This document shows positions 2,647 through 38,300 of a stretch of DNA of 64,000 nucleotides, piece after piece (the first letter of the stretch is position 1; every line of letters begins with the position of its first letter). A program made the translations under genes and the position numbers. The notes beneath the pieces were generated by a model. It searched no databases. It was not told the DNA's origin and worked only from the letters and a program-made list of their open reading frames with translations. Where the stretch lies: assembly GCA_963780225.1 (NCBI GenBank), contig CAWAAX010000006.1:18136-82135 (forward strand), in the 5' to 3' direction. Source of the stretch: an uncultured bacterium. Lineage in GTDB: Bacteria; Edwardsbacteria; AC1; EtOH8.

Positions 2647-2732
2647 GCCTGCCCTGTCCCAAAAACAACCATAAATATGGGTTTTATTTGATTGCAAAAC
2701 TCAATCCGCTGTGATAAAATTAACTTTTTAGT

Positions 2733-4964
2733 ATGCATAACTCCAACTTACATAAAATATTGCCTCTGGTACAGAGGCCGGGACGTTACACCGATAACGA
2801 ACTGAATTCCGTCCATAAAAACTGGGACCAGGCACAGGTAAAGATAGCTCTGGCCTATCCCGACCTTTACGAGATCGGGATGTCCGGCTTGGGGCTGGCC
2901 ATCCTTTATTCAGTGGTCAACCGGCTGCCGCAGGCATTGGCCGACCGCAGTTACCTGCCCTGGCCGGACATGGAAGAGGCCATGCGCAAGCAGGGTATCC
3001 CTCTGTTCGGATGGGAGACCCGGCGCGAGCTTAGGGAATTCGACGTCCTGGGCATCACCCTGCAGACCGAGCTGTGCTATGCCGGGGTGCTGAACCTGCT
3101 GGACCTGTCCGGCCTGCCGCTGTATGCTGATCAGCGAAAAGAGGAGCATCCCCTGGTGATCGGGGGCGGCTCCTGCTGCGCCAACCCGGCGCCGCTGTCA
3201 AAATTCTTTGATGCCTTCGTGATCGGAGACGGAGAGGAGGCCATCGTGGAGATCTGCGGGCAGCTGCAGGAAGCCAAAGCGAAAATCGAAAGCAGAAGGC
3301 AGAAAATCGAACGGTTGTCCCGGATCCCGGGTATCTATGTCCCCATGATCCATGATGGAACAAAAACCAAGATCCGGGCCAGGCATATCGCCTCACTGGA
3401 CATCAAAGACGCCGCCCACCCGCCGCTGGTGCCGCTGGTGGAGGTGACCCACGACCGGCTGACGGTGGAGATCGCCCGGGGCTGCACCCGGGGCTGCCGT
3501 TTCTGCCAGGCCGGGATGGTCTACCGCCCCCGGCTGGTAAGGTCCGAAGACGAGGTGGTGAAGCTGGCCAGGGAGGGCATCGCCAAAAGCGGCTGGGACG
3601 AGGTCTCGCTGCTCTCGCTTTCCTCCGGGGATTACCCGGATCTCCTGGGGCTGTTGCAGAAACTTAACGGTTGTTTTTCCAATTCCAAAGTGGCCATCTC
3701 CCTGCCGTCATTGCGGCTGGATTCCTTTGACGGGGAGATGATAGAGGCCCTGAAAAAGGTGAAGAAGACCGGACTGACCTTTGCCCCCGAGGCCGGCAGC
3801 CAGCGTCTGAGGGATGTGATCAACAAGGGGATCAGCAAAGAAGAATTATTGCGGGTGATAGCCCTGGCCAAAAAAGAGGGCTGGATGCAGGTCAAGCTGT
3901 ATTTCATGATCGGTTTGCCCACCGAGACCGAAGAGGACCTCAAGGAGTTGTGCGACCTCTGCCACCAGGCGTCAAAACTGGGGGTCAACCTTAAAGTGGC
4001 GGTCTCGCCCTTCGTGCCCAAGGCCCAGACCCCGTTCCAGTGGGAGGCCCAGGACAGCTGGGAGACGCTGTACCAGAAGATAGACCTTTTGTCCCGGGGC
4101 CTCAAGTCCCACAAGGTCCAGATGAAATGGCACGACCTGCGATCCTCCAAGCTGGAGGGACTGCTGGCCCGGGGCGGCAGCGAAACGGCGGCCCTGATAG
4201 AAAAGGCCTGGCAGAAGGGGGCCAAGCTGGACCAGTGGAGCGAGCATTTTGTCTGGGGGCGCTGGGAAGAGGCGATGCAGGAACTGGGCCTCGATCTGAA
4301 TAATTTGTGCCGGGCCAGGACCGACGAGGAAACATTGCCCTGGGATAACATTGATTACGGGGTCTCCAAGAAATTCCTGCTGCAGGAAAAGCAGAAAGCC
4401 TACCAGGAGCAGATCACTTCTGACTGCCGGGAGCAGGGATGCCACGGCTGCGGGGCGGACTGCGGGACGCAGGGAACAGGGATCAGGGATCAGATGTCAG
4501 GGGACAGGGGACAGGAGGCAGGGGACAGCTTAAAGCATAAAGCTGTCAGCTTACAGCTTGTTGATGGTTTCGGGCGCAGCGCCAAGAAGATGGCCGGGCC
4601 GGCCCCGCTGGCCAGGACCAAGTTCCGCCTGCGCTATGCCAAGGGGCCCGAGCTTCGCTTCATCTCGCACCTGGACCTGATGCGGGCCTGGCTGAGGGCC
4701 GTCAGCCGGGCGGAGCTGCCGGTGGCCTTCTCCCAGGGCTTTTCCCCGCATCCCAAAATAGCCTTTGGCCCGCCGCTGGCCCTGGGGCTGACCACCAGCG
4801 CCGATTACATGGACATCCAGCTGGACCGGCCGCTTTCTGAGGACATCGGACTGCTGATCAACCCCCATTTGCCGCCGGGGTTGAATGTGCTGGAGTCCAA
4901 GCCAATCTTCGGCAACGCAAAGTCAATCACCGAGCTGTGCGACGCCGCTGAATACCGGGTCTAA
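2733..4964 (+). CDS. B12-binding-domain radical SAM protein (TIGR03960-like) fused to a radical-SAM-associated DUF2344 (TIGR03936-like) domain; ends at an in-frame TAA
   Basis: The CxxxCxxC motif 'CTRGCRFC' sits within 'VEIARGCTRGCRFCQAGMVY'. The C-terminal part 'RFRLRYAKGPELRFISHLDLMRAWLRAVSRAELPVAFSQGFSPHPKIAFGPPLALG' is DUF2344-like. Confidence 0.7.
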   Translation: MHNSNLHKILPLVQRPGRYTDNELNSVHKNWDQAQVKIALAYPDLYEIGMSGLGLAILYSVVNRLPQALADRSYLPWPDMEEAMRKQGIPLFGWETRRELREFDVLGITLQTELCYAGVLNLLDLSGLPLYADQRKEEHPLVIGGGSCCANPAPLSKFFDAFVIGDGEEAIVEICGQLQEAKAKIESRRQKIERLSRIPGIYVPMIHDGTKTKIRARHIASLDIKDAAHPPLVPLVEVTHDRLTVEIARGCTRGCRFCQAGMVYRPRLVRSEDEVVKLAREGIAKSGWDEVSLLSLSSGDYPDLLGLLQKLNGCFSNSKVAISLPSLRLDSFDGEMIEALKKVKKTGLTFAPEAGSQRLRDVINKGISKEELLRVIALAKKEGWMQVKLYFMIGLPTETEEDLKELCDLCHQASKLGVNLKVAVSPFVPKAQTPFQWEAQDSWETLYQKIDLLSRGLKSHKVQMKWHDLRSSKLEGLLARGGSETAALIEKAWQKGAKLDQWSEHFVWGRWEEAMQELGLDLNNLCRARTDEETLPWDNIDYGVSKKFLLQEKQKAYQEQITSDCREQGCHGCGADCGTQGTGIRDQMSGDRGQEAGDSLKHKAVSLQLVDGFGRSAKKMAGPAPLARTKFRLRYAKGPELRFISHLDLMRAWLRAVSRAELPVAFSQGFSPHPKIAFGPPLALGLTTSADYMDIQLDRPLSEDIGLLINPHLPPGLNVLESKPIFGNAKSITELCDAAEYRV

Positions 4965-5285
4965 GTGATGAGACCTTCGATCCTCCGGACCGCAGTGCAG
5001 AAGGCCAGAGTGATTCTGGACGGCAAAAAGCCCTGGCCGGTCAATGTCCTGCGCAAGGACCAGCACAAGGAACTGGACCTGGCTCCCCAGATACTGGACA
5101 TCTCGGACGAGGCCGGTTCTCTTAAGATCAAAATGCGGCTGGTGGAGGGCGGGGTCAAGCTGAACGAGGCGCTGGCGGTGATACTGGAACTGCCGGAGGG
5201 CAGGATCAAGCAGCTGCTGATAGAGCGGGTAGGGATGTACCACATTACGCCACGGGAGATGCTGAGCCCCATGCGGTTTGTTTAA
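4965..5285 (+). CDS. Continuation of the DUF2344 domain, same frame as the upstream gene and separated from it only by TAA
   Basis: It starts at GTG directly after the TAA at 4962-4964 in frame 0. The sequence 'ILDGKKPWPVNVLRKD...LKIKMRLVEGGVKLNEALAVIL' resembles the C-terminal half of TIGR03936-family proteins. Confidence 0.5.
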   Translation: MMRPSILRTAVQKARVILDGKKPWPVNVLRKDQHKELDLAPQILDISDEAGSLKIKMRLVEGGVKLNEALAVILELPEGRIKQLLIERVGMYHITPREMLSPMRFV

Positions 5286-5297
5286 AGCTTTTTATTT

Positions 5298-5395
5298 AAC
5301 CACAGAAAGCACAAAGGGCACAAAAAATTTCTTTCTATATTTCTCAAGTGGTTTTTAAATCGTGATCCTATGTGATTTATGTGCATTTTGTGGTT
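5298..5395. repeat. Gene-less inverted-repeat hairpin of the CACRAAR family
   Basis: The left arm aaccacagaaagcacaaagggcacaaaa (5298-5327) is complementary to the right arm tgtgatttatgtgcattttgtggtt (5371-5395). The right arm is nearly identical to the right arm at 8836-8857. Confidence 0.6.
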
Positions 5396-5429
5396 AATTA
5401 AGGTAATCGGTAAAGGTGTTGGTTGAAAA

Positions 5430-6158
5430 ATGCGGAACATCAAACTTCTTCTTGAATACGACGGCACGGCCTTTGCCGGATGGCAGGTTCAGCCGGAGCA
5501 GCGCACGGTGCAGGGGGTGCTGGAGTCGGCCCTGTCCCAGATGACCGGGGAGAAGGTGTCGCTGACAGGCTCGGGCCGCACCGACGCCGGGGTCCACGCT
5601 TCGGGACAGGTGGCTAATTTCAGGACAGAAAAGGACATTCCCTTAAAAGCCTTCAACGAGGGCCTGAATGCATTGCTCCCAAAGGATGTGGCAGTGCTGA
5701 AGGCCGAAGAGGCCGACCCTGAATTTCATTCCCGCTTCGGCGCCAAGAGCAGGCTGTACCGCTACCAGATCATAACCCGGCGTTCGCCTCTGCTGGAGCG
5801 CTATGCCTGGAGGATCCTCTATCCGCTGAACCGGGAGGTCCTGCCGGAGCTGTGCAACGTCATTCTGGGAAAACACGATTTCACCGCCTTCGCCTCGGCC
5901 CAGGCCGAGGTGGACAATTTCAACGTGAACGTGACCCGGGCCGGCTGGAAGGATTACGGGGGCGTGCTCAGCTTTGAGATCCTGGCCGACCGCTTTCTGC
6001 ACAACATGGTGCGGATCATCGTAGGGACCATGATGGACACGGCCCGGGGGCGCCTTAAGCCGGAGGATATGAAGAAAATACTGGAGTCCAGGGACCGGAC
6101 CCTGGCCGGTAAGACCGCCCCGGCCTGCGGTCTGTGTTTGGTGAAGGTGGAGTATTGA
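5430..6158 (+). CDS. truA: tRNA pseudouridine(38-40) synthase
   Basis: 'LEYDGTAFAGWQVQ...GSGRTDAGVHASGQVANF' is the TruA signature. Confidence 0.9.
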   Translation: MRNIKLLLEYDGTAFAGWQVQPEQRTVQGVLESALSQMTGEKVSLTGSGRTDAGVHASGQVANFRTEKDIPLKAFNEGLNALLPKDVAVLKAEEADPEFHSRFGAKSRLYRYQIITRRSPLLERYAWRILYPLNREVLPELCNVILGKHDFTAFASAQAEVDNFNVNVTRAGWKDYGGVLSFEILADRFLHNMVRIIVGTMMDTARGRLKPEDMKKILESRDRTLAGKTAPACGLCLVKVEY

Positions 6159-6168
6159 GATTGGTATA

Positions 6169-6200
6169 TTATCCGCAGATTACGCAGATTGCACAGATTT
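6169..6200 (+). promoter_or_regulatory. TTATCCGCAGATT plus three 9-bp tandem CAGATTnnn repeats (DnaA-box-like core)
   Basis: ttatccgCAGATTacgCAGATTgcaCAGATTtt. Related copies lie at 11254-11277 and 23437-23459. Confidence 0.4.
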
Positions 6201-8368: not shown

Positions 8369-8415
8369 AAATTGTCGGGCCTGGGTGGTAAATTATGAAT
8401 CAATAAATTAATTTA

Positions 8416-8857
8416 CCACAAAAAGCACAAGGAACACATAAAATGACGGATAACGAAGTATTGCGACTATGTGATATTGTTAGGCAGACGGCCTTTGTTC
8501 TTCATACCTATTTACGGAACGGCCATTTGGAAAAGGTATATGAAAACGGATTAACCCATCGTCTTCGTAAGGCAGGAATAAAGGTCGAACAGCAGCACCC
8601 TTTAAAGGTTTTTGACGAAGATGGAACCATTCTGGGGGAGTACTTCGCAGACCTGTTAATAGAAACGGAACTTATCGTCGAACTTAAGGTCTGCAAGGCA
8701 ATAGCAGATGAGCACCTGTCCCAAGTATTCGGATATTTACGCGCCACAGGGCAGCGACATGGATTATTAATTAATTTTGGATCGCAACAAATTCAATTTA
8801 AGAAATTGGTTTTGTAGGTATGGCGTTAATTTTGCGATTTATGTGCTTCTTGTGGTT
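8416..8857. repeat. Matched inverted-repeat pair enclosing a GxxExxY gene
   Basis: The left arm ccacaaaaagcacaaggaacacataaa (8416-8442) ends 1 bp before the ATG. The right arm gatttatgtgcttcttgtggtt (8836-8857) lies 19 bp after the stop. Arm cores ccacaaRaagcaca...taaa are complementary. Confidence 0.6.
8443..8817 (+). CDS. GxxExxY family protein (PD-(D/E)XK-like small protein), paralog 1
   Basis: 'LEKVYENGL...GEYFADLLIETELIVELK...' matches the GxxExxY pattern. It is paralogous to the ORFs at 18126 and 27504. Confidence 0.8.
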   Translation: MTDNEVLRLCDIVRQTAFVLHTYLRNGHLEKVYENGLTHRLRKAGIKVEQQHPLKVFDEDGTILGEYFADLLIETELIVELKVCKAIADEHLSQVFGYLRATGQRHGLLINFGSQQIQFKKLVL

Positions 8858-8880
8858 GAATAAATATACCTTTTTACGAA

Positions 8881-10162: not shown

Positions 10163-11224
10163 TTGAAGAATTGCATCCAGTGTCTTTTGCCGGAGAGCGC
10201 ACCGGGCATCAGCTTTGATGATTCCGGGATCTGCAACTACTGCCGGACATACAAGAAGACCGAGCTTAACGGCGAGGAGGCCCTGTTAAGGATCCTTGAC
10301 CGCCAGCGCCGCCGGGGCGGAAAGTACCAGTGCCTGGTGCCATTGAGCGGCGGCCGTGACAGCACCTTTGCCCTGCTGAAGATGGTCCGAGATTACGGTC
10401 TGACTGCTTTGGCGGTGAATTATCAGAATCCTTTTACTTCACCCGAAGCTGCTGCGAATATTCGGCAGGCCACCGAAAAACTGGGGGTGGAACTGGTGAG
10501 CTTTGGTCTAAAGCCGGGTTTGCACCAAATGACACTCAAGAAGAACCTGGAGGCCTGGCTCAAAAGGCCGTCGGCGGCGCTGGTTCCGATAATCTGCAGC
10601 GCCTGCCACAACATGTGGCTGCCGATCATGCAGATCGCCAAGAAACACGATATCCATTGCATAGTCACCGGGCGCAACCCCTACGAGGAGGTCTCGTTCA
10701 AACGCCGCCTGCTGGGGGTCAGCCCCGACGAGGACATCAGGAATGTCTATCTAAAGAACCTCGGAGGAATAGTCAAGGAGGCGGCCAAGAACCTGTCCTA
10801 TTTCTCGCCCCAAACCCTGCCGGTGATGATCAAGGGGCATTTCTTCGGCAGTCCCTATGCTTTGGGAACCAGGATCTACGGCCGCGGCATCGAAATGGCT
10901 GACCTGTTCTTTTACCTGCCCTGGAACGAATCTGAAGTCATGTCCCGGATCCAAAACGAGTTGGGCTGGCAAAGCCCCAAAGAGCAGGGCAACACCTGGC
11001 GCTTCGACTGCAGGGTTTCGCACCTGCGGGATCTGATGTACCAGAAGACCATCGGGATGACCGAGCGCCAGGAGCTTTACGCCCGGCTGATCCGCGAGGG
11101 GTTGATATCCAAACAGGAAATTGGAAACCGGCTGCCGGTGGAGAATGCCATCCATTATGACAAGATTGAGGCCCTGTTGGACGAAGTGGGCATAAGGGAC
11201 AGGTCTTACCTAAGACAGGAGTGA
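10163..11224 (+). CDS. N-acetyl sugar amidotransferase (PP-loop ATPase, WbuX/TIGR03573-like), polysaccharide biosynthesis
   Basis: It has the N-terminal Cys cluster 'CIQCLLPESAPGISFDDSGICNYC' and the PP-loop 'SGGRDS'. The start codon is TTG. Confidence 0.6.
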   Translation: MKNCIQCLLPESAPGISFDDSGICNYCRTYKKTELNGEEALLRILDRQRRRGGKYQCLVPLSGGRDSTFALLKMVRDYGLTALAVNYQNPFTSPEAAANIRQATEKLGVELVSFGLKPGLHQMTLKKNLEAWLKRPSAALVPIICSACHNMWLPIMQIAKKHDIHCIVTGRNPYEEVSFKRRLLGVSPDEDIRNVYLKNLGGIVKEAAKNLSYFSPQTLPVMIKGHFFGSPYALGTRIYGRGIEMADLFFYLPWNESEVMSRIQNELGWQSPKEQGNTWRFDCRVSHLRDLMYQKTIGMTERQELYARLIREGLISKQEIGNRLPVENAIHYDKIEALLDEVGIRDRSYLRQE

Positions 11225-11829: not shown

Positions 11830-11916
11830 GCCACTAAGGCACAAAGACACAAAGGGTATTAAAAATAGTACCAAGCGCGATAAATAATTTTCTTGGAGCC
11901 TTGGTGTCTTTGTGGC
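11830..11916. repeat. Gene-less inverted-repeat hairpin of the CACRAAR family
   Basis: gccactaaggcacaaagacacaaagg (11830-11855) is complementary to ccttggtgtctttgtggc (11899-11916). It uses the same octamer units (aaagacac, taaggcac) as the arms flanking the GxxExxY gene at 27504. Confidence 0.6.
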
Positions 11917-13634: not shown

Positions 13635-14276
13635 ATGTCGCCTAAAAACAATATTAACCCAACGCCTGTAACAGTTGAGAATAAAATAGAATTGCCAAAA
13701 CAAAATAATGGTATGGCATTTTGGGCTTTGGGAATTTCAGTGATATCACTTATAATAAGTAGTCTTTCCACTTATTGGATTGCGTACCCAAATTACAGTT
13801 TGAAAATTATCGATGCCAATTTATGTTTTAATGTGAAGGCCCTGTATGATACAACTTATTTAGACTCAAATTATGTGGAGTGTAAATTTTATAATGATGG
13901 CAATAGAGCTGTAACAGTAAAAGATTTTCGCTTTTACCTATCCGATAAAAATGATTCCATGTTGTTCGTTTTTCAAGATGACGTTGTTTGCCCAAAACAA
14001 ATAGAACCTGGTGATTATGCCGAAAGTATAGTAAAACTGTCTTTCATAAGGGTATATAACCCACCACCACAGCAAATCACAAAGATGAAATATCGTTTAC
14101 CTTATAAAAATTACAGCAGTTGGAAAATGTTATCCGATTCATTTCGCATGGGCCAAGCAAGTTTACCCTTAAAACGGGAAATAGAATTTAATATTAAAAT
14201 ACATTATGCCGGGAATAAAGAGCTTAAGTATAAACGATCAATTTCATGTATTTGGCCAATTCCTATAGAAGATTAA
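13635..14276 (+). CDS. Hypothetical membrane-anchored protein in an AT-rich island
   Basis: It has one N-terminal TM helix, no recognisable domain, and local base composition far more AT-rich than its neighbours. Confidence 0.4.
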   Translation: MSPKNNINPTPVTVENKIELPKQNNGMAFWALGISVISLIISSLSTYWIAYPNYSLKIIDANLCFNVKALYDTTYLDSNYVECKFYNDGNRAVTVKDFRFYLSDKNDSMLFVFQDDVVCPKQIEPGDYAESIVKLSFIRVYNPPPQQITKMKYRLPYKNYSSWKMLSDSFRMGQASLPLKREIEFNIKIHYAGNKELKYKRSISCIWPIPIED

Positions 14277-16505: not shown

Positions 16506-16994
16506 GTGGCGGAGATACAGGACCGGCTGAAGGCCAACCGCGATGACATAGTTAAGAAGCTGAACGCCCAGATGGAAGAGCTGAAGGCGTTGGAGAAGGC
16601 TAAAAAGGATGCGGCCAGACTTCAACAGGGGAGTCTGGTAGAGGGGATGGTTAAAGAAGTTAAAAAGGTTCAAGACGTCCAATTGTTGGTCAAATTGCTG
16701 GATGACTTTACCCAAGACGACATGCGGGAGATGGCCGACAAACTGCGGATCAAGCTGCCGGGTGCGGTCATCATCCTGTCCAGCGTGGACGAGGGCAAGT
16801 TCGGGTTCACCATCGCGGTGGGCGACGATCTGGTCAAAGCCAAGAAGTTCCTGGCCGGGGACATCGCCAAGAAGATCGCCGCGGCCACCGGCGGCAAGGG
16901 CGGCGGCCGTCCCCAGCTGGCCCAGGTGGGCGGCAAGGACGAGGGGAAGCTGAAGGAGCAGATGGGGATGATCGAGAATATCATCTTTTCATAG
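16506..16994 (+). CDS. alaS: Alanine--tRNA ligase C-terminal (DHHA1-like) region, in the +1 frame relative to the upstream part
   Basis: 'GGKGGGRPQLAQVGGKD' is the AlaRS C-terminal motif. This frame is open from 16452 and reads '...AYRLVKQDELLVAEIQDRL', which continues the AlaRS coiled-coil. Confidence 0.8.
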   Translation: MAEIQDRLKANRDDIVKKLNAQMEELKALEKAKKDAARLQQGSLVEGMVKEVKKVQDVQLLVKLLDDFTQDDMREMADKLRIKLPGAVIILSSVDEGKFGFTIAVGDDLVKAKKFLAGDIAKKIAAATGGKGGGRPQLAQVGGKDEGKLKEQMGMIENIIFS

Positions 16995-17036
16995 CCCAGC
17001 CCTTAAGGGCTGGGCTATGAACGGGAACAAATAATC

Positions 17037-17290: not shown

Positions 17291-18049
17291 ATGATCTACC
17301 AACAACTGCTGAAAACCGCCAAGCAAAAGGGCTCGAATTTCCTGGTCCTTTTGGACCCCGACAAGTGCAAAAAACAGGACGCGGCCAAGATCGGCCAGGC
17401 CTTGAACGACGCCGGGGCCGATGGCATCCTGTTCGGCACCAGCCTGCTGATGTCCAACCAGATCGACGACACCATCAAGGCCTTAAAGCAGAACTTCAAA
17501 CAGCCGGTGATCATATTCCCCGGCAGCGCCTACCAGGTCTCGCCGCACGCCGATGCCATCCTGTACCTGTCGCTGGTCTCGGGCCGCAATGCGGAACTAT
17601 TGATCGGTGAGCAGGTCAAGGCCGCGCCCATGCTGAAAGCCTCGGGCCTGGAGGTGATCCCCACCGGCTACATGTTGATCGAGTCCGGCAAGCTGACCTC
17701 GGCCAACTACATGAGTCACACCATGCCCATCCCCCGGGACAAGTCCGACATCGCCATGGCCCACGCCCTGGCCGCCCGGATGCTGGGGATGAAGCTGATC
17801 TACATGGACGCCGGCAGCGGCGCCCAGCAGAGCGTCCCAGAGGAGATGATCGCCGGGGTGGCCAAATATGCCGAGCTTCCCGTTGTGGTGGGAGGCGGCA
17901 TCAAAACGCCCGAGGACGCCGGGGCCAAGGCCCGGGCCGGGGCCGCCGCGGTGGTGGTGGGGAACATTTTGGAGAAGAAGGGCAACATCAAGACGGCGGC
18001 GGATTTCGCCAGGGCTATTCACTTCAGGGCGAAAACAAACCGGGGCTAA
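17291..18049 (+). CDS. Geranylgeranylglyceryl/heptaprenylglyceryl phosphate synthase family protein (PcrB/GGGPS)
   Basis: 'LVLLDPDK...ADGILFGTS...IIFPGS...LIYMDAGSGA...VVVGGGIKT' follows the GGGPS/PcrB TIM-barrel pattern. A GGAGG RBS precedes the ATG. Confidence 0.7.
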   Translation: MIYQQLLKTAKQKGSNFLVLLDPDKCKKQDAAKIGQALNDAGADGILFGTSLLMSNQIDDTIKALKQNFKQPVIIFPGSAYQVSPHADAILYLSLVSGRNAELLIGEQVKAAPMLKASGLEVIPTGYMLIESGKLTSANYMSHTMPIPRDKSDIAMAHALAARMLGMKLIYMDAGSGAQQSVPEEMIAGVAKYAELPVVVGGGIKTPEDAGAKARAGAAAVVVGNILEKKGNIKTAADFARAIHFRAKTNRG

Positions 18050-18545
18050 CCACGGAAACACGGAATTTATGAAAACACGGAAACATATAAAATGATTTGT
18101 TTGATTACGTTAGGTGTGTTTATATATGAGTATAGTAAGATCTGACCATTTGGAATTAGAAGAATTAACAGGGAATATTATTTCTTGCGGAATAGAAGTC
18201 CATAAAAAACTAGGTCCCGGATTTCTGGAATCGCTATATGAATCTGCTTTGCTGGTAGAACTTCAAAAAAGAGGCTTGCATACCACAAGTCAAAAGGAGA
18301 TCAGGGTATTTTATGACGGATTTGAAATTGGCGTACACCGGCTGGACATTGTCGTAGAGAATAAAGTTATTGTTGAACTTAAAGCGGTCGCTGAACTTGA
18401 CCAATGCCATAAAGCACAGTTGCTGTCATATCTCAAGGCTAGTCATTTAAAAATTGGGTTACTGTTAAATTTTTCTAAAAATATTCTCCAGGTGAAAAGG
18501 ATGGCATATTGATTCCCAGAATTCCTCATTCAGTGTTTCCGTGGT
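18048..18545. repeat. Matched inverted-repeat pair enclosing a GxxExxY gene
   Basis: The left arm aaccacggaaacacggaatttatgaaaacacggaaacatataaa (18048-18091) is complementary to the right arm cagtgtttccgtggt (18531-18545). The core is accacggaaacac. Confidence 0.6.
18126..18512 (+). CDS. GxxExxY family protein, paralog 2
   Basis: 'HKKLGPGFLESLYESAL...IVVENKVIVELKAV' is paralogous to 8443 and 27504. The ORF-track start at 18114 is GTG; the ATG at 18126 is the more likely start. Confidence 0.8.
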   Translation: MSIVRSDHLELEELTGNIISCGIEVHKKLGPGFLESLYESALLVELQKRGLHTTSQKEIRVFYDGFEIGVHRLDIVVENKVIVELKAVAELDQCHKAQLLSYLKASHLKIGLLLNFSKNILQVKRMAY

Positions 18546-18577
18546 AAAATAAATATAACTAAATATAGGAGTCAGCA

Positions 18578-27468: not shown

Positions 27469-27475
27469 TTCCTTT

Positions 27476-27922
27476 GCCACAAAGACACTAAGGCACGAAA
27501 ATCATGAATTATCAACCGCTATCAACAGTAGAAGAAGAGCGGGCAAAGAAAATCGTAGATGCCGCATATGCAGTGCATAAAAAACTGGGTCCGGGGTTGC
27601 TGGAAAAAGTATACGAGGTATGTTTTTGGCATGAATTGTCTAAACGGGAATTAAGGTACCAAAGGCAAGTTGATGTACCGATTGTTTATGACGGTATAAC
27701 GTTTGATGAAGGACTATGTTTAGATGTCCTGGTGGAAAACAGCATCATCTGTGAATTGAAAGCCGTAGATGAGATGAATCCAGTCTGGGAAGCACAAATA
27801 CTGAGCCATTTAAAACTAACTGGCAAACGCCTTGGATTTCTCATCAATTTTAATCTGTCAGTTATCAAAAACGGTATTAAACGATTTATTGTATAAACTT
27901 GGTGACTTAGTGTCTTTGTGGC
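27476..27922. repeat. Matched inverted-repeat pair enclosing a GxxExxY gene
   Basis: The left arm gccacaaagacactaaggcacgaaaatc (27476-27503) abuts the ATG. The right arm cttggtgacttagtgtctttgtggc (27898-27922) lies 2 bp after the stop. The 17-bp core gccacaaagacactaag is perfectly complementary. Confidence 0.7.
27504..27896 (+). CDS. GxxExxY family protein, paralog 3
   Basis: 'HKKLGPGLLEKVYEVCF...LDVLVENSIICELKAV' matches the GxxExxY pattern. Confidence 0.8.
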   Translation: MNYQPLSTVEEERAKKIVDAAYAVHKKLGPGLLEKVYEVCFWHELSKRELRYQRQVDVPIVYDGITFDEGLCLDVLVENSIICELKAVDEMNPVWEAQILSHLKLTGKRLGFLINFNLSVIKNGIKRFIV

Positions 27923-27971
27923 GGAAGAGTTCCATCATCAAATAATATACCCAAACTGTTAGGAGGAGAAA

Positions 27972-36593: not shown

Positions 36594-36838
36594 AAGCTTC
36601 GGACCGCCCCCCTGCCCCCTCCGTTGCGGAGGGGGAGGGGAGTGTCCCTCTCCACATTGGAGAGGGACAAAGGGAGAGGTCAAAAGCTTCGGACCGCCCC
36701 CTCGTTCCCCCTCCGTAGCGGAGGGGGAATAGGTTGTGTGAATAGTTATGTGTTGATATGTTTGATGATGTAAATAAAACTGATGACGAAATCCCTCTCC
36801 ACAATGGAGAGGGGGAGGGGAGAGGTCGAACCAGGCCA
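36594..36838. repeat. GC-rich mosaic palindromic repeat modules between the MTase gene and the DUF559 gene
   Basis: aagcttcggaccgcccccctgccccctccgttgcggagggggag... occurs twice, and atccctctccacaatggagaggg extends into the 5' end of the DUF559 ORF. Confidence 0.7.
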
Positions 36839-37219
36839 GCCCACCCCAAGGGCAGCACCGGGATTATCAGGCTGCAAAAAGTGAAAAGCAGCAAATTAGA
36901 GTTGGCCAAATATTTCAGACAGCATATGACACTTGGCGAAAGGTGCTTCTGGAATATGACCCGCAAGAACCAGGTCAACGGTTACCGATTCAGACGCCAG
37001 CAGGTGATCCACGGCTTTGTTGCCGATTTCTACTGCAACCAGATAAACCTGGTGGTCGAGATAGACGGCGGCATCCACGAACAGCAGAAGGACTACGACA
37101 AGCTTCGCACAAAAATAATTAACCAGTACGGCATCCGGGTCATACGTTTTACCAACGAAGAAATGATGGATAAAAGCGATTGGGTGTTGGAGAAGTTGAA
37201 GGAAGCTGCGAGAAGTTGA
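36758..37219 (+). CDS. DUF559 (Vsr-like endonuclease-fold) protein; the 5' boundary is uncertain because the ORF's first ~25 codons are repeat sequence
   Basis: 'KLELAKYFRQHMTLGERCFWNMTR...GYRFRRQQVIHGFVADFYCNQINLVVEIDGGIHEQQKDYDKLRTKIINQYGIRVIRFTNEEM' is the DUF559 pattern. Confidence 0.7.
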   Translation: MFDDVNKTDDEIPLHNGEGEGRGRTRPAHPKGSTGIIRLQKVKSSKLELAKYFRQHMTLGERCFWNMTRKNQVNGYRFRRQQVIHGFVADFYCNQINLVVEIDGGIHEQQKDYDKLRTKIINQYGIRVIRFTNEEMMDKSDWVLEKLKEAARS

Positions 37220-37223
37220 TTGC

Positions 37224-37374
37224 CTAAAGCTTCGGACCGCCCCCTCGTTCCCCACTTTCGCTTGTCGTAGTGTTCTGCCTTGCTCAGTGCAGGCACTCCG
37301 TTGCGGAGGGGGAGGACAGACATCCCTCTCCACATTGGAGAGGGATAAAGGGAGAGGTCGAACCCCGCAGGACG
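37224..37374. repeat. GC-rich mosaic palindromic repeat modules downstream of the DUF559 gene
   Basis: ctaaagcttcggaccgccccctcgttccccactttcgcttgtcgtagtgttctgccttgctcagtgcaggcactccgttgcggagggggag...catccctctccacattggagagggataaagggagaggtcgaacc. Confidence 0.7.
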
Positions 37375-37482
37375 GCCCACCAACCCCCTTGCATTTTCAC
37401 CCATCATTTGCGATAATAACGCAAGCCATAATAGACGCCTTTGGCGTCTATTATGCTTTAACATTAAACCACGGAGAAGGTC

Positions 37483-37877: not shown

Positions 37878-38300
37878 GCACCAAAACCTAAATCCTAAAC
37901 CCTAAACAAATTCCAAATCATAAGCCATAAACCCAAAACAGTTCGTTGTTTTGAGTTTGGCGAATTTATATTTGTTTAGAATTTAGATACTTGCTTCCAT
38001 CGCCGGGCAGTAGGGGCGAAGCACTAAATCCGAAATCCGAAATCCTAAACAATCCCAAATTATCAAAACCTAAAACTCAAAACTGTTTCGTACTTTGTAT
38101 TTAAACAATTAGAATTTGTTTTGAGTTTAGATACTTACTTCTATCGCAGGGCAGCAGGGGCGAAGCCCTAAATCCGAGATACGAAATCCTAAACAATCCC
38201 AAATGACCAAAACCTAAAACTCAAAACGGTTTCGTGCTTTGTATTTAATAATTAGAATTTGTTTTGAATTTAGATATTAGTATTTAGAGATTTAACCAGT
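37878..38300. repeat. Three tandem copies of a ~145-bp highly structured AT-rich repeat immediately upstream of mutL
   Basis: Units start near 37878, 38021 and 38166. Each contains the inverted repeat aaaacctaaaactcaaaac / gttttgagtttag, (g/t)aaatcc microrepeats, and a G-rich tail ctatcgcagggcagcaggggcgaag. Confidence 0.75.

Follow-up and report, generated by a model that had tools for sequence, protein, structure and literature searches.

A gene-less hairpin upstream of truA is most likely selfish DNA and probably a relic of a GxxExxY nuclease cassette

The spacer between a radical-SAM/DUF2344 gene and truA carries an inverted repeat with no coding capacity, which raises the question of whether such a hairpin is a regulatory signal or selfish DNA. 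Herein, we describe this locus within the window, that is, the whole stretch of 64,000 nucleotides that was analysed and to which all window coordinates refer. The hairpin occupies positions 5296–5397 of the plus strand. It starts 11 nt past the stop codon of the radical-SAM/DUF2344 gene, which carries a frameshift, and ends 33 nt ahead of the truA start. The left arm (5296–5325, plus strand) reads TTAACCAC AGAAAG CAC AAAGGG CAC AAAA, amounting to three 9-nt CACR units; it is followed on the same strand by a 42-nt loop (5326–5367) without an ORF and by the right arm (5368–5397), the reverse complement TTAACCACAAAATGCACATAAATCACATAG. The layout is TTAACCACAGAAAGCACAAAGGGCACAAAA, the 42-nt spacer and CTATGTGATTTATGTGCATTTTGTGGTTAA, with three tandem 9-nt units per arm, each opening with CACA and following the pattern CACRnnnnn. 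In the outermost part, TTAACCACAGAAAGCACA (5296–5313) is complementary to TGTGCATTTTGTGGTTAA (5380–5397) with two mismatches in 18, and the gap between these outer 18-mers is 66 nt. A repeat finder stretched the arms to 31 nt (5292–5322 and 5371–5401), with 77% complementarity and a separation of 48 nt. The first-pass annotation, which had reported a hairpin between a DUF2344 fragment and truA, was right about the inverted repeat and about its neighbours. It located the hairpin properly at 5298–5395, with each end 2 nt short, and its spacer of about 45 bp suits the extended 31-nt arms but not the outer 18-mers.

The plus strand of the hairpin folds at -27.6 kcal/mol (z = -3.8, none of 200 shuffles being as good), and the minus strand at -23.3 kcal/mol (z = -3.75). 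With up to three mismatches allowed, the 18-nt arm motif occurs four times in the window against an expectation of 0.04, and 0/100 shuffles reach four. An nhmmer profile of 132 arms, all of them from other phyla, finds exactly the four A-type arms within the window; its best match there is the left arm at the truA site (5296–5325, E = 1.3e-4), and the right arm is matched at 5368–5396 (E = 9e-4). For the purpose of this analysis we defined the family by at least two tandem 8–10-nt CRC-initial units, an outer end of the form (A/G)CC(A/G)C and an inverted orientation, all of which are found in 5296–5397. The hairpin also has the small size, the terminal inverted repeats and the lack of coding capacity that characterize MITEs.

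The window holds five such elements in total, two gene-less and three enclosing a GxxExxY nuclease gene, so that all three GxxExxY genes in the window are bracketed by arms (3/3). All five lie within the first 28 kb, on the same strand as the surrounding genes. A full-length element of arm type A (8412–8859, plus strand) is located between rnfD and recA and consists of a left arm at 8412–8440, a GxxExxY gene at 8443–8817 and a right arm at 8830–8859. The likeness between the truA-site arms and those flanking this gene, which had already been pointed out, amounts to 2–3 mismatches in 18. Only the arms align: the loop of the truA-site hairpin has no robust similarity to the 8443 gene, and comparing left with left and right with right arms of the 5296 and 8412 elements gave no signal, with 21–28/36 identities in every combination. 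The second gene-less hairpin, of type B (11830–11916, plus strand), is flanked by a tautomerase-like gene and recX and folds at -30 kcal/mol; its left arm (11830–11857) reads GCCAC TAAGG CAC AAAGA CAC AAAGG and its right arm spans 11890–11916. The full-length element of type C (18045–18547, plus strand) has the arms CCACGGAAACACGGAA.. and ..CAGTGTTTCCGTGG around a GxxExxY gene at 18126–18512, and the stop codon of a PcrB-like gene is at the same time the start of its left arm. Finally, a full-length element of type B (27474–27924, plus strand) sits between pepP and efp, with a left arm at 27474–27500, a GxxExxY gene at 27504–27896 and a right arm at 27897–27924; according to the repeat finder its arms are 24 nt long and 92% complementary. 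This third GxxExxY element did not appear in the earlier list.

Three types of arm can be told apart. The arms of elements 5296 and 8412 (type A) carry an AACCAC end and consist of 9-nt units; those of elements 11830 and 27474 (type B) carry a GCCAC end and consist of 8-nt units, CACAAAGA and CACTAAGG among them; and that of element 18045 (type C) is CCACGGAAACACGG. Within 28 kb, each gene-less copy can accordingly be matched with a gene-containing element of its own type. The hairpin at 11830–11916, cited in the first pass together with the truA-site copy as a sign of a gene-independent family, is real, but its arm type is a different one, the 8-nt units being common to it and 27474–27924.

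Unit length tracks the protein subfamily, both in the window and in other genomes. All A-type genes have arms with 9–10-nt units, and homologues of the B protein with 78–80% identity, found in other organisms (L212 and, from Marinimicrobia, L222), have GCCAC ends and 8-nt units. Among 59 A-type elements, protein identity was correlated with the 6-mer similarity of the arms (Mantel r = 0.37, p ≤ 0.0005), and arm similarity rose from 0.10 at 40–55% protein identity to 0.60 above 90%. The signals of the gene are themselves embedded in the arms: a Shine-Dalgarno-like AAGGA is contributed by the final unit on the left, and the stop codon falls within or next to the first right-hand unit, an arrangement shared by a TA06-like genome, Jettenia and a Pyrinomonadaceae MAG. 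Gene and arms, judged by these comparisons, diverge together and form one heritable unit. Remnants of the gene were detected in two of 75 gene-less copies. L049 (2949–3099) has a left arm, followed by the start codon with codons 1–30, joined to the right arm (hmmsearch E = 4e-9), and L137 (2886–3064) is a short hairpin retaining the C-terminal 15 codons of a GxxExxY gene; both are plainly deletion products. The loops of gene-less copies are mutually unrelated, and in the 5296 copy itself, alignments of the interior and of the arms revealed no convincing gene remnant. We would rather regard the gene-less copies as belonging to a single gene-plus-arms element, of which they are non-autonomous or deletion-derived forms. 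The suggestion that the hairpin family exists independently of the gene is contradicted by the shared arm types, the unit length, the Mantel test and the hairpins with gene fragments; its milder form, that the family also exists without the gene, is true of the window and of many phyla.

Beyond the window, a single A-type arm pattern is present in at least 119 genome blocks from more than 10 phyla, compared with about 6.5 chance matches expected over 596 Gb under a uniform base composition; the pattern had been fitted to the window's own arms. All of these blocks come from genomes other than the window's own, so that the scan is no census of that genome. The phyla comprise Acidobacteriota, Verrucomicrobiota, Latescibacterota, Gemmatimonadota, Planctomycetota, Lentisphaerota, Kiritimatiellota, Bacteroidota, Chloroflexota, Nitrospirota and some Proteobacteria, and the pattern also occurs in MAGs labelled Heliomicrobium and in one Methanosarcina. 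Matches are numerous in the closed genomes of Opitutales (OZ219851), Terriglobia (OY760650) and Latescibacterota (OZ220733). The arm consensus in these other genomes is TAACCAC(AAAAGNCAC)n. Of the 136 arms among the matches listed, 83 lie no more than 2 kb from an inverted partner; most paired arms form gene-less elements of 50–200 nt, many of them very stable (-45 to -81 kcal/mol), and gene-less copies outnumber gene-containing ones by about 20 to 1. Five matches of the arm pattern in viral contigs were rejected as hairpins, being coding Glu/Gln-rich repeats, and viral contigs yielded no relative of either the B or the C protein.

The same association emerges when the protein is taken as the starting point. 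Relatives of the 8443 protein are encoded by 532 of 600 candidate metagenome stretches, and inverted arrays of C[AG]C[AG]AAAGN units bracket about 60 of the 75 metagenome GxxExxY loci that were kept, each with at least 80 nt of flank. When metagenomes and genomes are combined, inverted repeats of C[AG]C units bracket 59–66 of about 80 subfamily-A genes. Over all loci, element lengths are bimodal (50–200 versus 400–600 nt), in a sample that is biased in that one set was picked by arm and the other by gene. With this bias, the lengths agree with the two classes that had been predicted for a census of the arm motif, short without the gene and long with it. GxxExxY is the only gene family recognised inside the elements of 400–600 nt, where the Pfam scan left out the remaining long arm pairs; in these remaining pairs no recurring ORF was found. 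The family reaches far past the window, with at least 119 blocks in other genomes, and the outcome that would have spoken against the first-pass annotation, namely no similarity beyond the window, did not occur.

All three proteins encoded by the enclosed genes in the window belong to GxxExxY (TIGR04256, E from 1e-33 to 1e-43, and PF13366). Their mutual identity is 31–42%, and the 8443 protein is 69% identical to a protein of Jettenia (Planctomycetota) versus 31% to its own paralogues. A 2012 survey listed PF13366 as of 'Unknown' function with multiple horizontal transfers (PMC3424549), and the greater closeness of the 8443 protein to a Planctomycetota protein than to its paralogues agrees with such transfers. 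D70, E80 and K82, which make up a D...ExK motif, are invariant in 46 sequences. An AlphaFold (AF2) model (pLDDT 96.5) has a Cas4/RecB/lambda-exonuclease-like core, with Cas4 SSO0001 as the top structural match (E = 1.7e-4, TM-score 0.58) and further matches to lambda-exonuclease/RecB-type nucleases. The folds of a Holliday-junction resolvase (Hjc) and of a tRNA-splicing endonuclease received far lower structural scores and were rejected. The fold search assigns the protein only in general terms to the RecB/Cas4/lambda-exonuclease nucleases. The invariant residues and the modelled core suggest that the nuclease is probably active. A PDB sequence search with the protein gave no homologue, and PADLOC and PHROGs gave no meaningful match to a defence-system or phage family. 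With more than 5,500 distinct clusters at 90% identity returned by each of two protein searches, the family is a very large one.

The best named truA matches relate the organism to candidate division TA06, and three orthologous sites were compared among syntenic loci of its relatives. The hairpin at the truA site is present in the window, in L122 and in L228 (GCA_016208585.1), with differing indels. L208 and L209, where another gene has taken the place of the upstream one, have the right arm alone; the synteny break therefore falls inside the hairpin. L125, an outgroup by recA and rnfD identity, has no hairpin at this site, and its truA begins 6 nt past the stop codon. At the rnfD/recA site, a gene-containing element is present in the window, L001, L002 and L210; in L122 and L208 the cassette is absent and an unrelated GC-rich palindrome is found instead, and L125 has a degenerate gene-less hairpin. 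Since L125 is the outgroup, parsimony fits gene loss and gene gain equally well at this site. At the recX site, the hairpin is present only in the window and is absent from L122 and L125. The pattern of presence and absence across the three sites indicates that the elements were gained, lost and eroded over periods comparable to the age of a genus or family. On this comparison, the truA copy is an old, vertically inherited and decaying relic, which entered the radical-SAM/truA spacer in an ancestor of the window's lineage. The truA-site hairpin and the recA-site cassette persist across an rnfD divergence of about 70–80% identity, a persistence that could mean some host benefit. The dinucleotide TA is frequent on both sides of the elements, but it is self-complementary and may simply be part of the repeat; the sole empty site, that of L125, is very diverged.

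Taken together, we consider the truA-site hairpin to be most likely selfish DNA rather than a regulatory signal, and probably a non-autonomous relic of a selfish nuclease cassette that belongs to a foldback/MITE-like family. A full-length member is laid out as TA, ACCAC, two to five tandem purine-rich CRC-initial units of 8–10 nt, the gene, the complementary units, GTGGT and TA, with the enclosed gene encoding a predicted GxxExxY PD-(D/E)XK nuclease of about 125 aa. Short copies can arise from it via internal deletion of the gene. The conserved repeat units would be putative binding sites for the element's own nuclease, which would cut at or near the arms and so start movement or copying, while host repair or recombination would complete the process; short copies would either be mobilised in trans or be the residue of deletions. 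A hairpin of this kind would need no host function, and the stable stem-loop in the radical-SAM-truA transcript would be a side effect. That the nuclease acts on its own arms is a tentative part of this scheme, and we would not call it probable. Some points count against the explanation as a whole. A lone PD-(D/E)XK nuclease cannot rejoin DNA, and we know of none that is established as a sole transposase. Moreover, the copies have unrelated loops and only two of 75 contain gene remnants, unlike classical MITE families.

The unrelated loops and the scarcity of gene remnants, together with the excess of gene-less copies by about 20 to 1 among the matches listed in the arm-based scan, speak for a hairpin that came first and a gene that invaded it. 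Under this alternative, the gene-less hairpins would be the primary repeat and GxxExxY would behave like a homing-endonuclease gene: its product would cleave empty hairpins, and repair guided by arm homology would then copy the gene into the loop. PD-(D/E)XK homing endonucleases do exist, I-Ssp6803I being a generally known example, and at the rnfD-recA site the outgroup L125 has a short hairpin where the window and L210 have the gene. If genes hopped between hairpins, however, neither the co-divergence of arms and proteins in the Mantel test nor the tracking of protein subfamily by unit length would be expected, although both objections are softened if the nuclease is specific for an arm type. 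The start and stop of the gene are built into the arms in several phyla, clear deletion derivatives exist, and the model leaves the spread of the empty hairpins unexplained. We regard an invading gene as unlikely, if the likeliest of the alternatives.

A further alternative is that the host keeps the stem-loop for a role in RNA, be it as an RNase III site, as an exonuclease barrier or as a decoupler of radical-SAM and truA expression. Such RNA-level roles are on record for the REP, ERIC and Correia elements. In favour of this, the stem-loop has a very high stability, the plus strand folds slightly better than the minus strand, and the truA-site copy persists in several diverged relatives. Gene-less copies lie in short spacers, about 40 nt from each neighbour, and mostly between co-directional genes, the neighbours being 33 tandem, 7 convergent and 6 divergent by a custom and crude gene caller; 16 of 19 gene-containing elements are co-oriented with both neighbours. 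This context also fits an insert living inside operons. If pairing in RNA were under selection, however, mismatches compatible with G:U would be expected to differ between strands, and they do not: sense and antisense counts were 77 and 67 over the 66 elements with a gene (p = 0.45), and 30 and 37 over the 13 without one. Nor is an arm more complementary to its own partner than to others; a test for concerted evolution of the two arms found none, with a likeness of 0.81 within elements versus 0.80 between elements. The symmetry of the G:U mismatches and the near equality of these two values indicate that it is the sequence of the arms that is conserved, even across phyla, rather than their pairing, and a mere stem would have no need of such conservation. 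The sequence after the truA-site stem is TTAATTAAGG, and a scan of 5150–5550 detected neither a U-tract terminator nor a promoter consensus. The outgroup L125 lacks the hairpin altogether, and L208 and L209 keep one arm only.

Consistent with this, Rfam searches of the window and 15 loci, in gathering and E-value modes, returned no family and only noise resembling microRNA precursors. An identity with Acido-Lenti-1 was rejected, the Rfam match in L074 falling away from the hairpins, and the pairing shows no compensatory or strand-specific (G:U) conservation of the kind expected of a structured functional RNA. From these patterns of conservation, we favour the view that the arms are terminal repeats whose recognition would take place at the DNA level, and not an RNA stem maintained by selection. 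Such a view leaves room for side effects of the stem on the transcript, and a role in RNA retained by the host appears to us rather improbable.

The hairpin could also be a REP or REPIN mobilised by a RAYT, since the logic is alike: in REPIN-RAYT systems, too, palindromes are dispersed between genes, and each repeat type has a single small gene with inverted copies of that repeat on either side. Mostly vertical inheritance at given sites and loss over time are common to the two systems. A RAYT-like gene even lies about 7–10 kb downstream of truA in L122 and L125 (NF047646, 63 bits, below the cut-off of 80). Yet the gene of a RAYT system encodes a Y1/HUH transposase, whereas the enclosed gene here encodes a 125-aa PD-(D/E)XK (RecB/Cas4-like) nuclease; no RAYT homologue or Y1 gene was found in the window, and CACR arms are missing from the flanks of the RAYT-like gene of L122. 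A passage of PMC3733652 defines REP as an imperfect palindrome of 20–40 nt with a conserved GTAG or CGTC tag; by that definition the arms described here differ, being arrays of tandem 8–10-nt units that carry neither tag and are conserved across phyla. In addition, the GxxExxY protein tree indicates horizontal transfer. The REP/RAYT reading is largely refuted, and we consider it very improbable. Although the window has frameshifts resembling assembly errors, a chance inverted repeat or assembly artefact is refuted by the shuffles, none of 100 giving four motif matches, by the orthologous hairpin in the independent assemblies L122 and L228 and by hundreds of related arms in other genomes.

The reading as a relic of a nuclease cassette can be set beside several known systems, its underlying principle being that of REPIN-RAYT or IS-MITE pairs. 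The well-known Correia/NEMIS MITEs of Neisseria are alike in having terminal inverted repeats, a length of 50–200 nt and a boundary TA, and in lying between genes within operons, forming hairpins in mRNA and having longer gene-carrying relatives. They differ in that the copies described here share only their arms, that these arms consist of tandem repeats and that the partner gene is not a DDE transposase. A classical MITE was rejected on both internal sequence (the loops are unrelated) and partner gene (a PD-(D/E)XK nuclease, with no recognised transposase). Eukaryotic foldback (FB) transposons, as they are generally known, likewise have inverted ends of tandem repeats in varying number, heterogeneous loops and coding sequence in some copies; the present elements are prokaryotic, 10–100 times smaller and encode another and much smaller protein, and the comparison implies no shared ancestry. 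Homing endonucleases of the PD-(D/E)XK type such as I-Ssp6803I are also small nucleases in selfish inserts with presence/absence polymorphism at fixed sites, but here there is no intron or intein context, repeat arrays bracket the gene, and many gene-less copies lie at unrelated loci.

The intervening sequences of 23S rRNA, with the four-helix-bundle family PF05635 (23S_rRNA_IVP), resemble the elements in that a small gene or nothing is held within stem-forming inverted repeats; RNase III excision is documented for them. In L212, a GxxExxY cassette is followed, two genes further downstream in its operon, by a PF05635 gene with purine-rich inverted repeats on both sides. The elements described here differ in lying between protein-coding genes and in both protein family and arm sequence. 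An identity of the truA-site hairpin with a 23S rRNA intervening sequence was rejected, the hairpin lying between protein-coding genes in a window without rRNA. Hairpin-bracketed 23S_rRNA_IVP genes may nevertheless represent a sister lifestyle of the GxxExxY cassettes.

A literature search by motif and family names, of incomplete coverage, found no work linking GxxExxY/PDDEXK_3 to hairpins, MITEs or REPINs, and the inverted-repeat family of CACR arms is apparently undescribed. It is possible, though we would call it doubtful at present, that GxxExxY cassettes and gene-less hairpins together constitute a new prokaryotic foldback-type mobile class spanning more than 10 bacterial phyla and Methanosarcina, in which the 8–10-nt arrays would bind a mobilising RecB/Cas4-like PD-(D/E)XK nuclease and the hairpins would be the non-autonomous population.

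For genome analysis, the hairpins mark synteny breakpoints, as in L208 and L209, where the break lies inside the truA hairpin; they yield spurious ORFs, such as 'CLLCLLWL' peptides, and place very stable stems in operon transcripts. They may also help to explain the origin of rRNA intervening sequences. Arms that bracket almost all of the genes, abundant gene-less hairpins and the co-divergence of the two point to a nuclease acting on its own flanking repeats, and GxxExxY (TIGR04256/PDDEXK_3), a large family without an assigned function, is now given a concrete and testable biology. While the truA-site hairpin alone is of moderate interest, it leads to a widespread, uncharacterised family of elements.

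Small genes enclosed by repeats also occur outside the GxxExxY cassettes, in which a PD-(D/E)XK nuclease gene lies between inverted arms of tandem units. In the region 36600-37400 of the window, a DUF559 small nuclease gene (about 36896-37219; PF04480, E = 8e-32) is bracketed by two kinds of repeat: the direct repeat AAGCTTCGGACCGCCCCC and GC-rich palindromes (CCCCCTCCGTTGCGGAGGGGG; TCCCTCTCCACATTGGAGAGGGA, three copies). This locus is the window's second instance of a small nuclease gene enclosed by repeats. In L212, a locus from another genome, the polysaccharide-export operon carries a GxxExxY cassette with B-type arms (8-nt units, GCCAC end), and two genes downstream of it a PF05635 (23S_rRNA_IVP) gene at 2700-3270 is flanked by purine-rich inverted repeats (..GGAAGATGGACGAAG / GTCTTCCGTCTTCCATC..).

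The window contains other arrays of short units. Inverted arrays of the 7-8-nt units AAACCCT, AAATCCT and AAATCCG, found at 37880-38130 as repeat finder pairs I1, I16 and I20, form a further family of tandem-unit arms, and each array is followed by ATACTT(G/A)CTTC(C/T)ATCGC(C/A)GGGCAG(T/C)AGGGG. Immediately 3' of truA, three 9-nt units, TTATCCGCAGATTACGCAGATTGCACAGATT, form a solo array (6163-6200) for which no inverted partner was seen; this array is kept in the related genome locus L122 (10765-10800), and the Opitutales locus L042 holds similar arrays (CACGGATNA). A perfect palindrome TTCATAGCCCAGCCCTT/AAGGGCTGGGCTATGAA lies 3' of alaS (16988-17021). Its near variant CCTTAGCCCAGTCCTTAAGGGCTGGGCTAAGG occupies the rnfD-recA spacer of the relatives L122 (13540-13575) and L208 (3425-3460), and in the same spacer of the window a GxxExxY element stands in its place.

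Gene content was also compared with the relatives. Between recA and a tautomerase-like gene, the window carries a WbuX-like N-acetyl sugar amidotransferase ORF of 353 aa (10163-11224; TIGR03573, E = 5e-44, under cut-off) that is missing from the syntenic loci L122, L125 (the outgroup) and L210. A RAYT-like gene sits 3' of the HlyIII gene in L122 (17114-17704) and L125 (20232-20729), matching PF01797 at E = 1e-7 and NF047646 at 63 bits, below that family's cut-off of 80; in the window its place is taken by an unrelated ORF of 213 aa (13635-14276) for which no family match was found. Local frameshifts interrupt the radical-SAM/DUF2344 gene (about 4960) and alaS (about 16495), whose orthologues are intact in L122, and reflect either assembly error or pseudogenisation. 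The first-pass annotation described a DUF2344 fragment because of the frameshift at about 4960.

A repeat roughly 200 nt long occurs in multiple copies in Terriglobia, Versatilivorator and Latescibacterota (L014, L020, L029, L062, L074, L078, L097 and others), with three copies in L078. It has a 48-nt hairpin with A-type arms (9-nt units, AACCAC end) at its centre and outer inverted repeats GAGCCTTTTGCAAAATTCGCAGCGGG, and no Rfam entry. An Acido-Lenti-1 RNA (RF01687; 39.7 bits, gathering score 37) at 4949-4994 of L074, a Terriglobia genome, bears no relation to the neighbouring hairpins. Arm-pattern matches in the giant-virus-like contigs L230-L234 are coding Glu/Gln/Thr-rich repeats (GAACCACAAGAAGCACAAGAAACACAAGAA), a source of false positives when single arms are searched. 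The CACR-arm family reaches an archaeon. In Methanosarcina sp. (L084, 5851-5910), arm units AACCACAGAAGGCACAAAAACCACAGAAACCACGGAA precede a small hairpin, ACCACGGAA..TTCCGTGGT.
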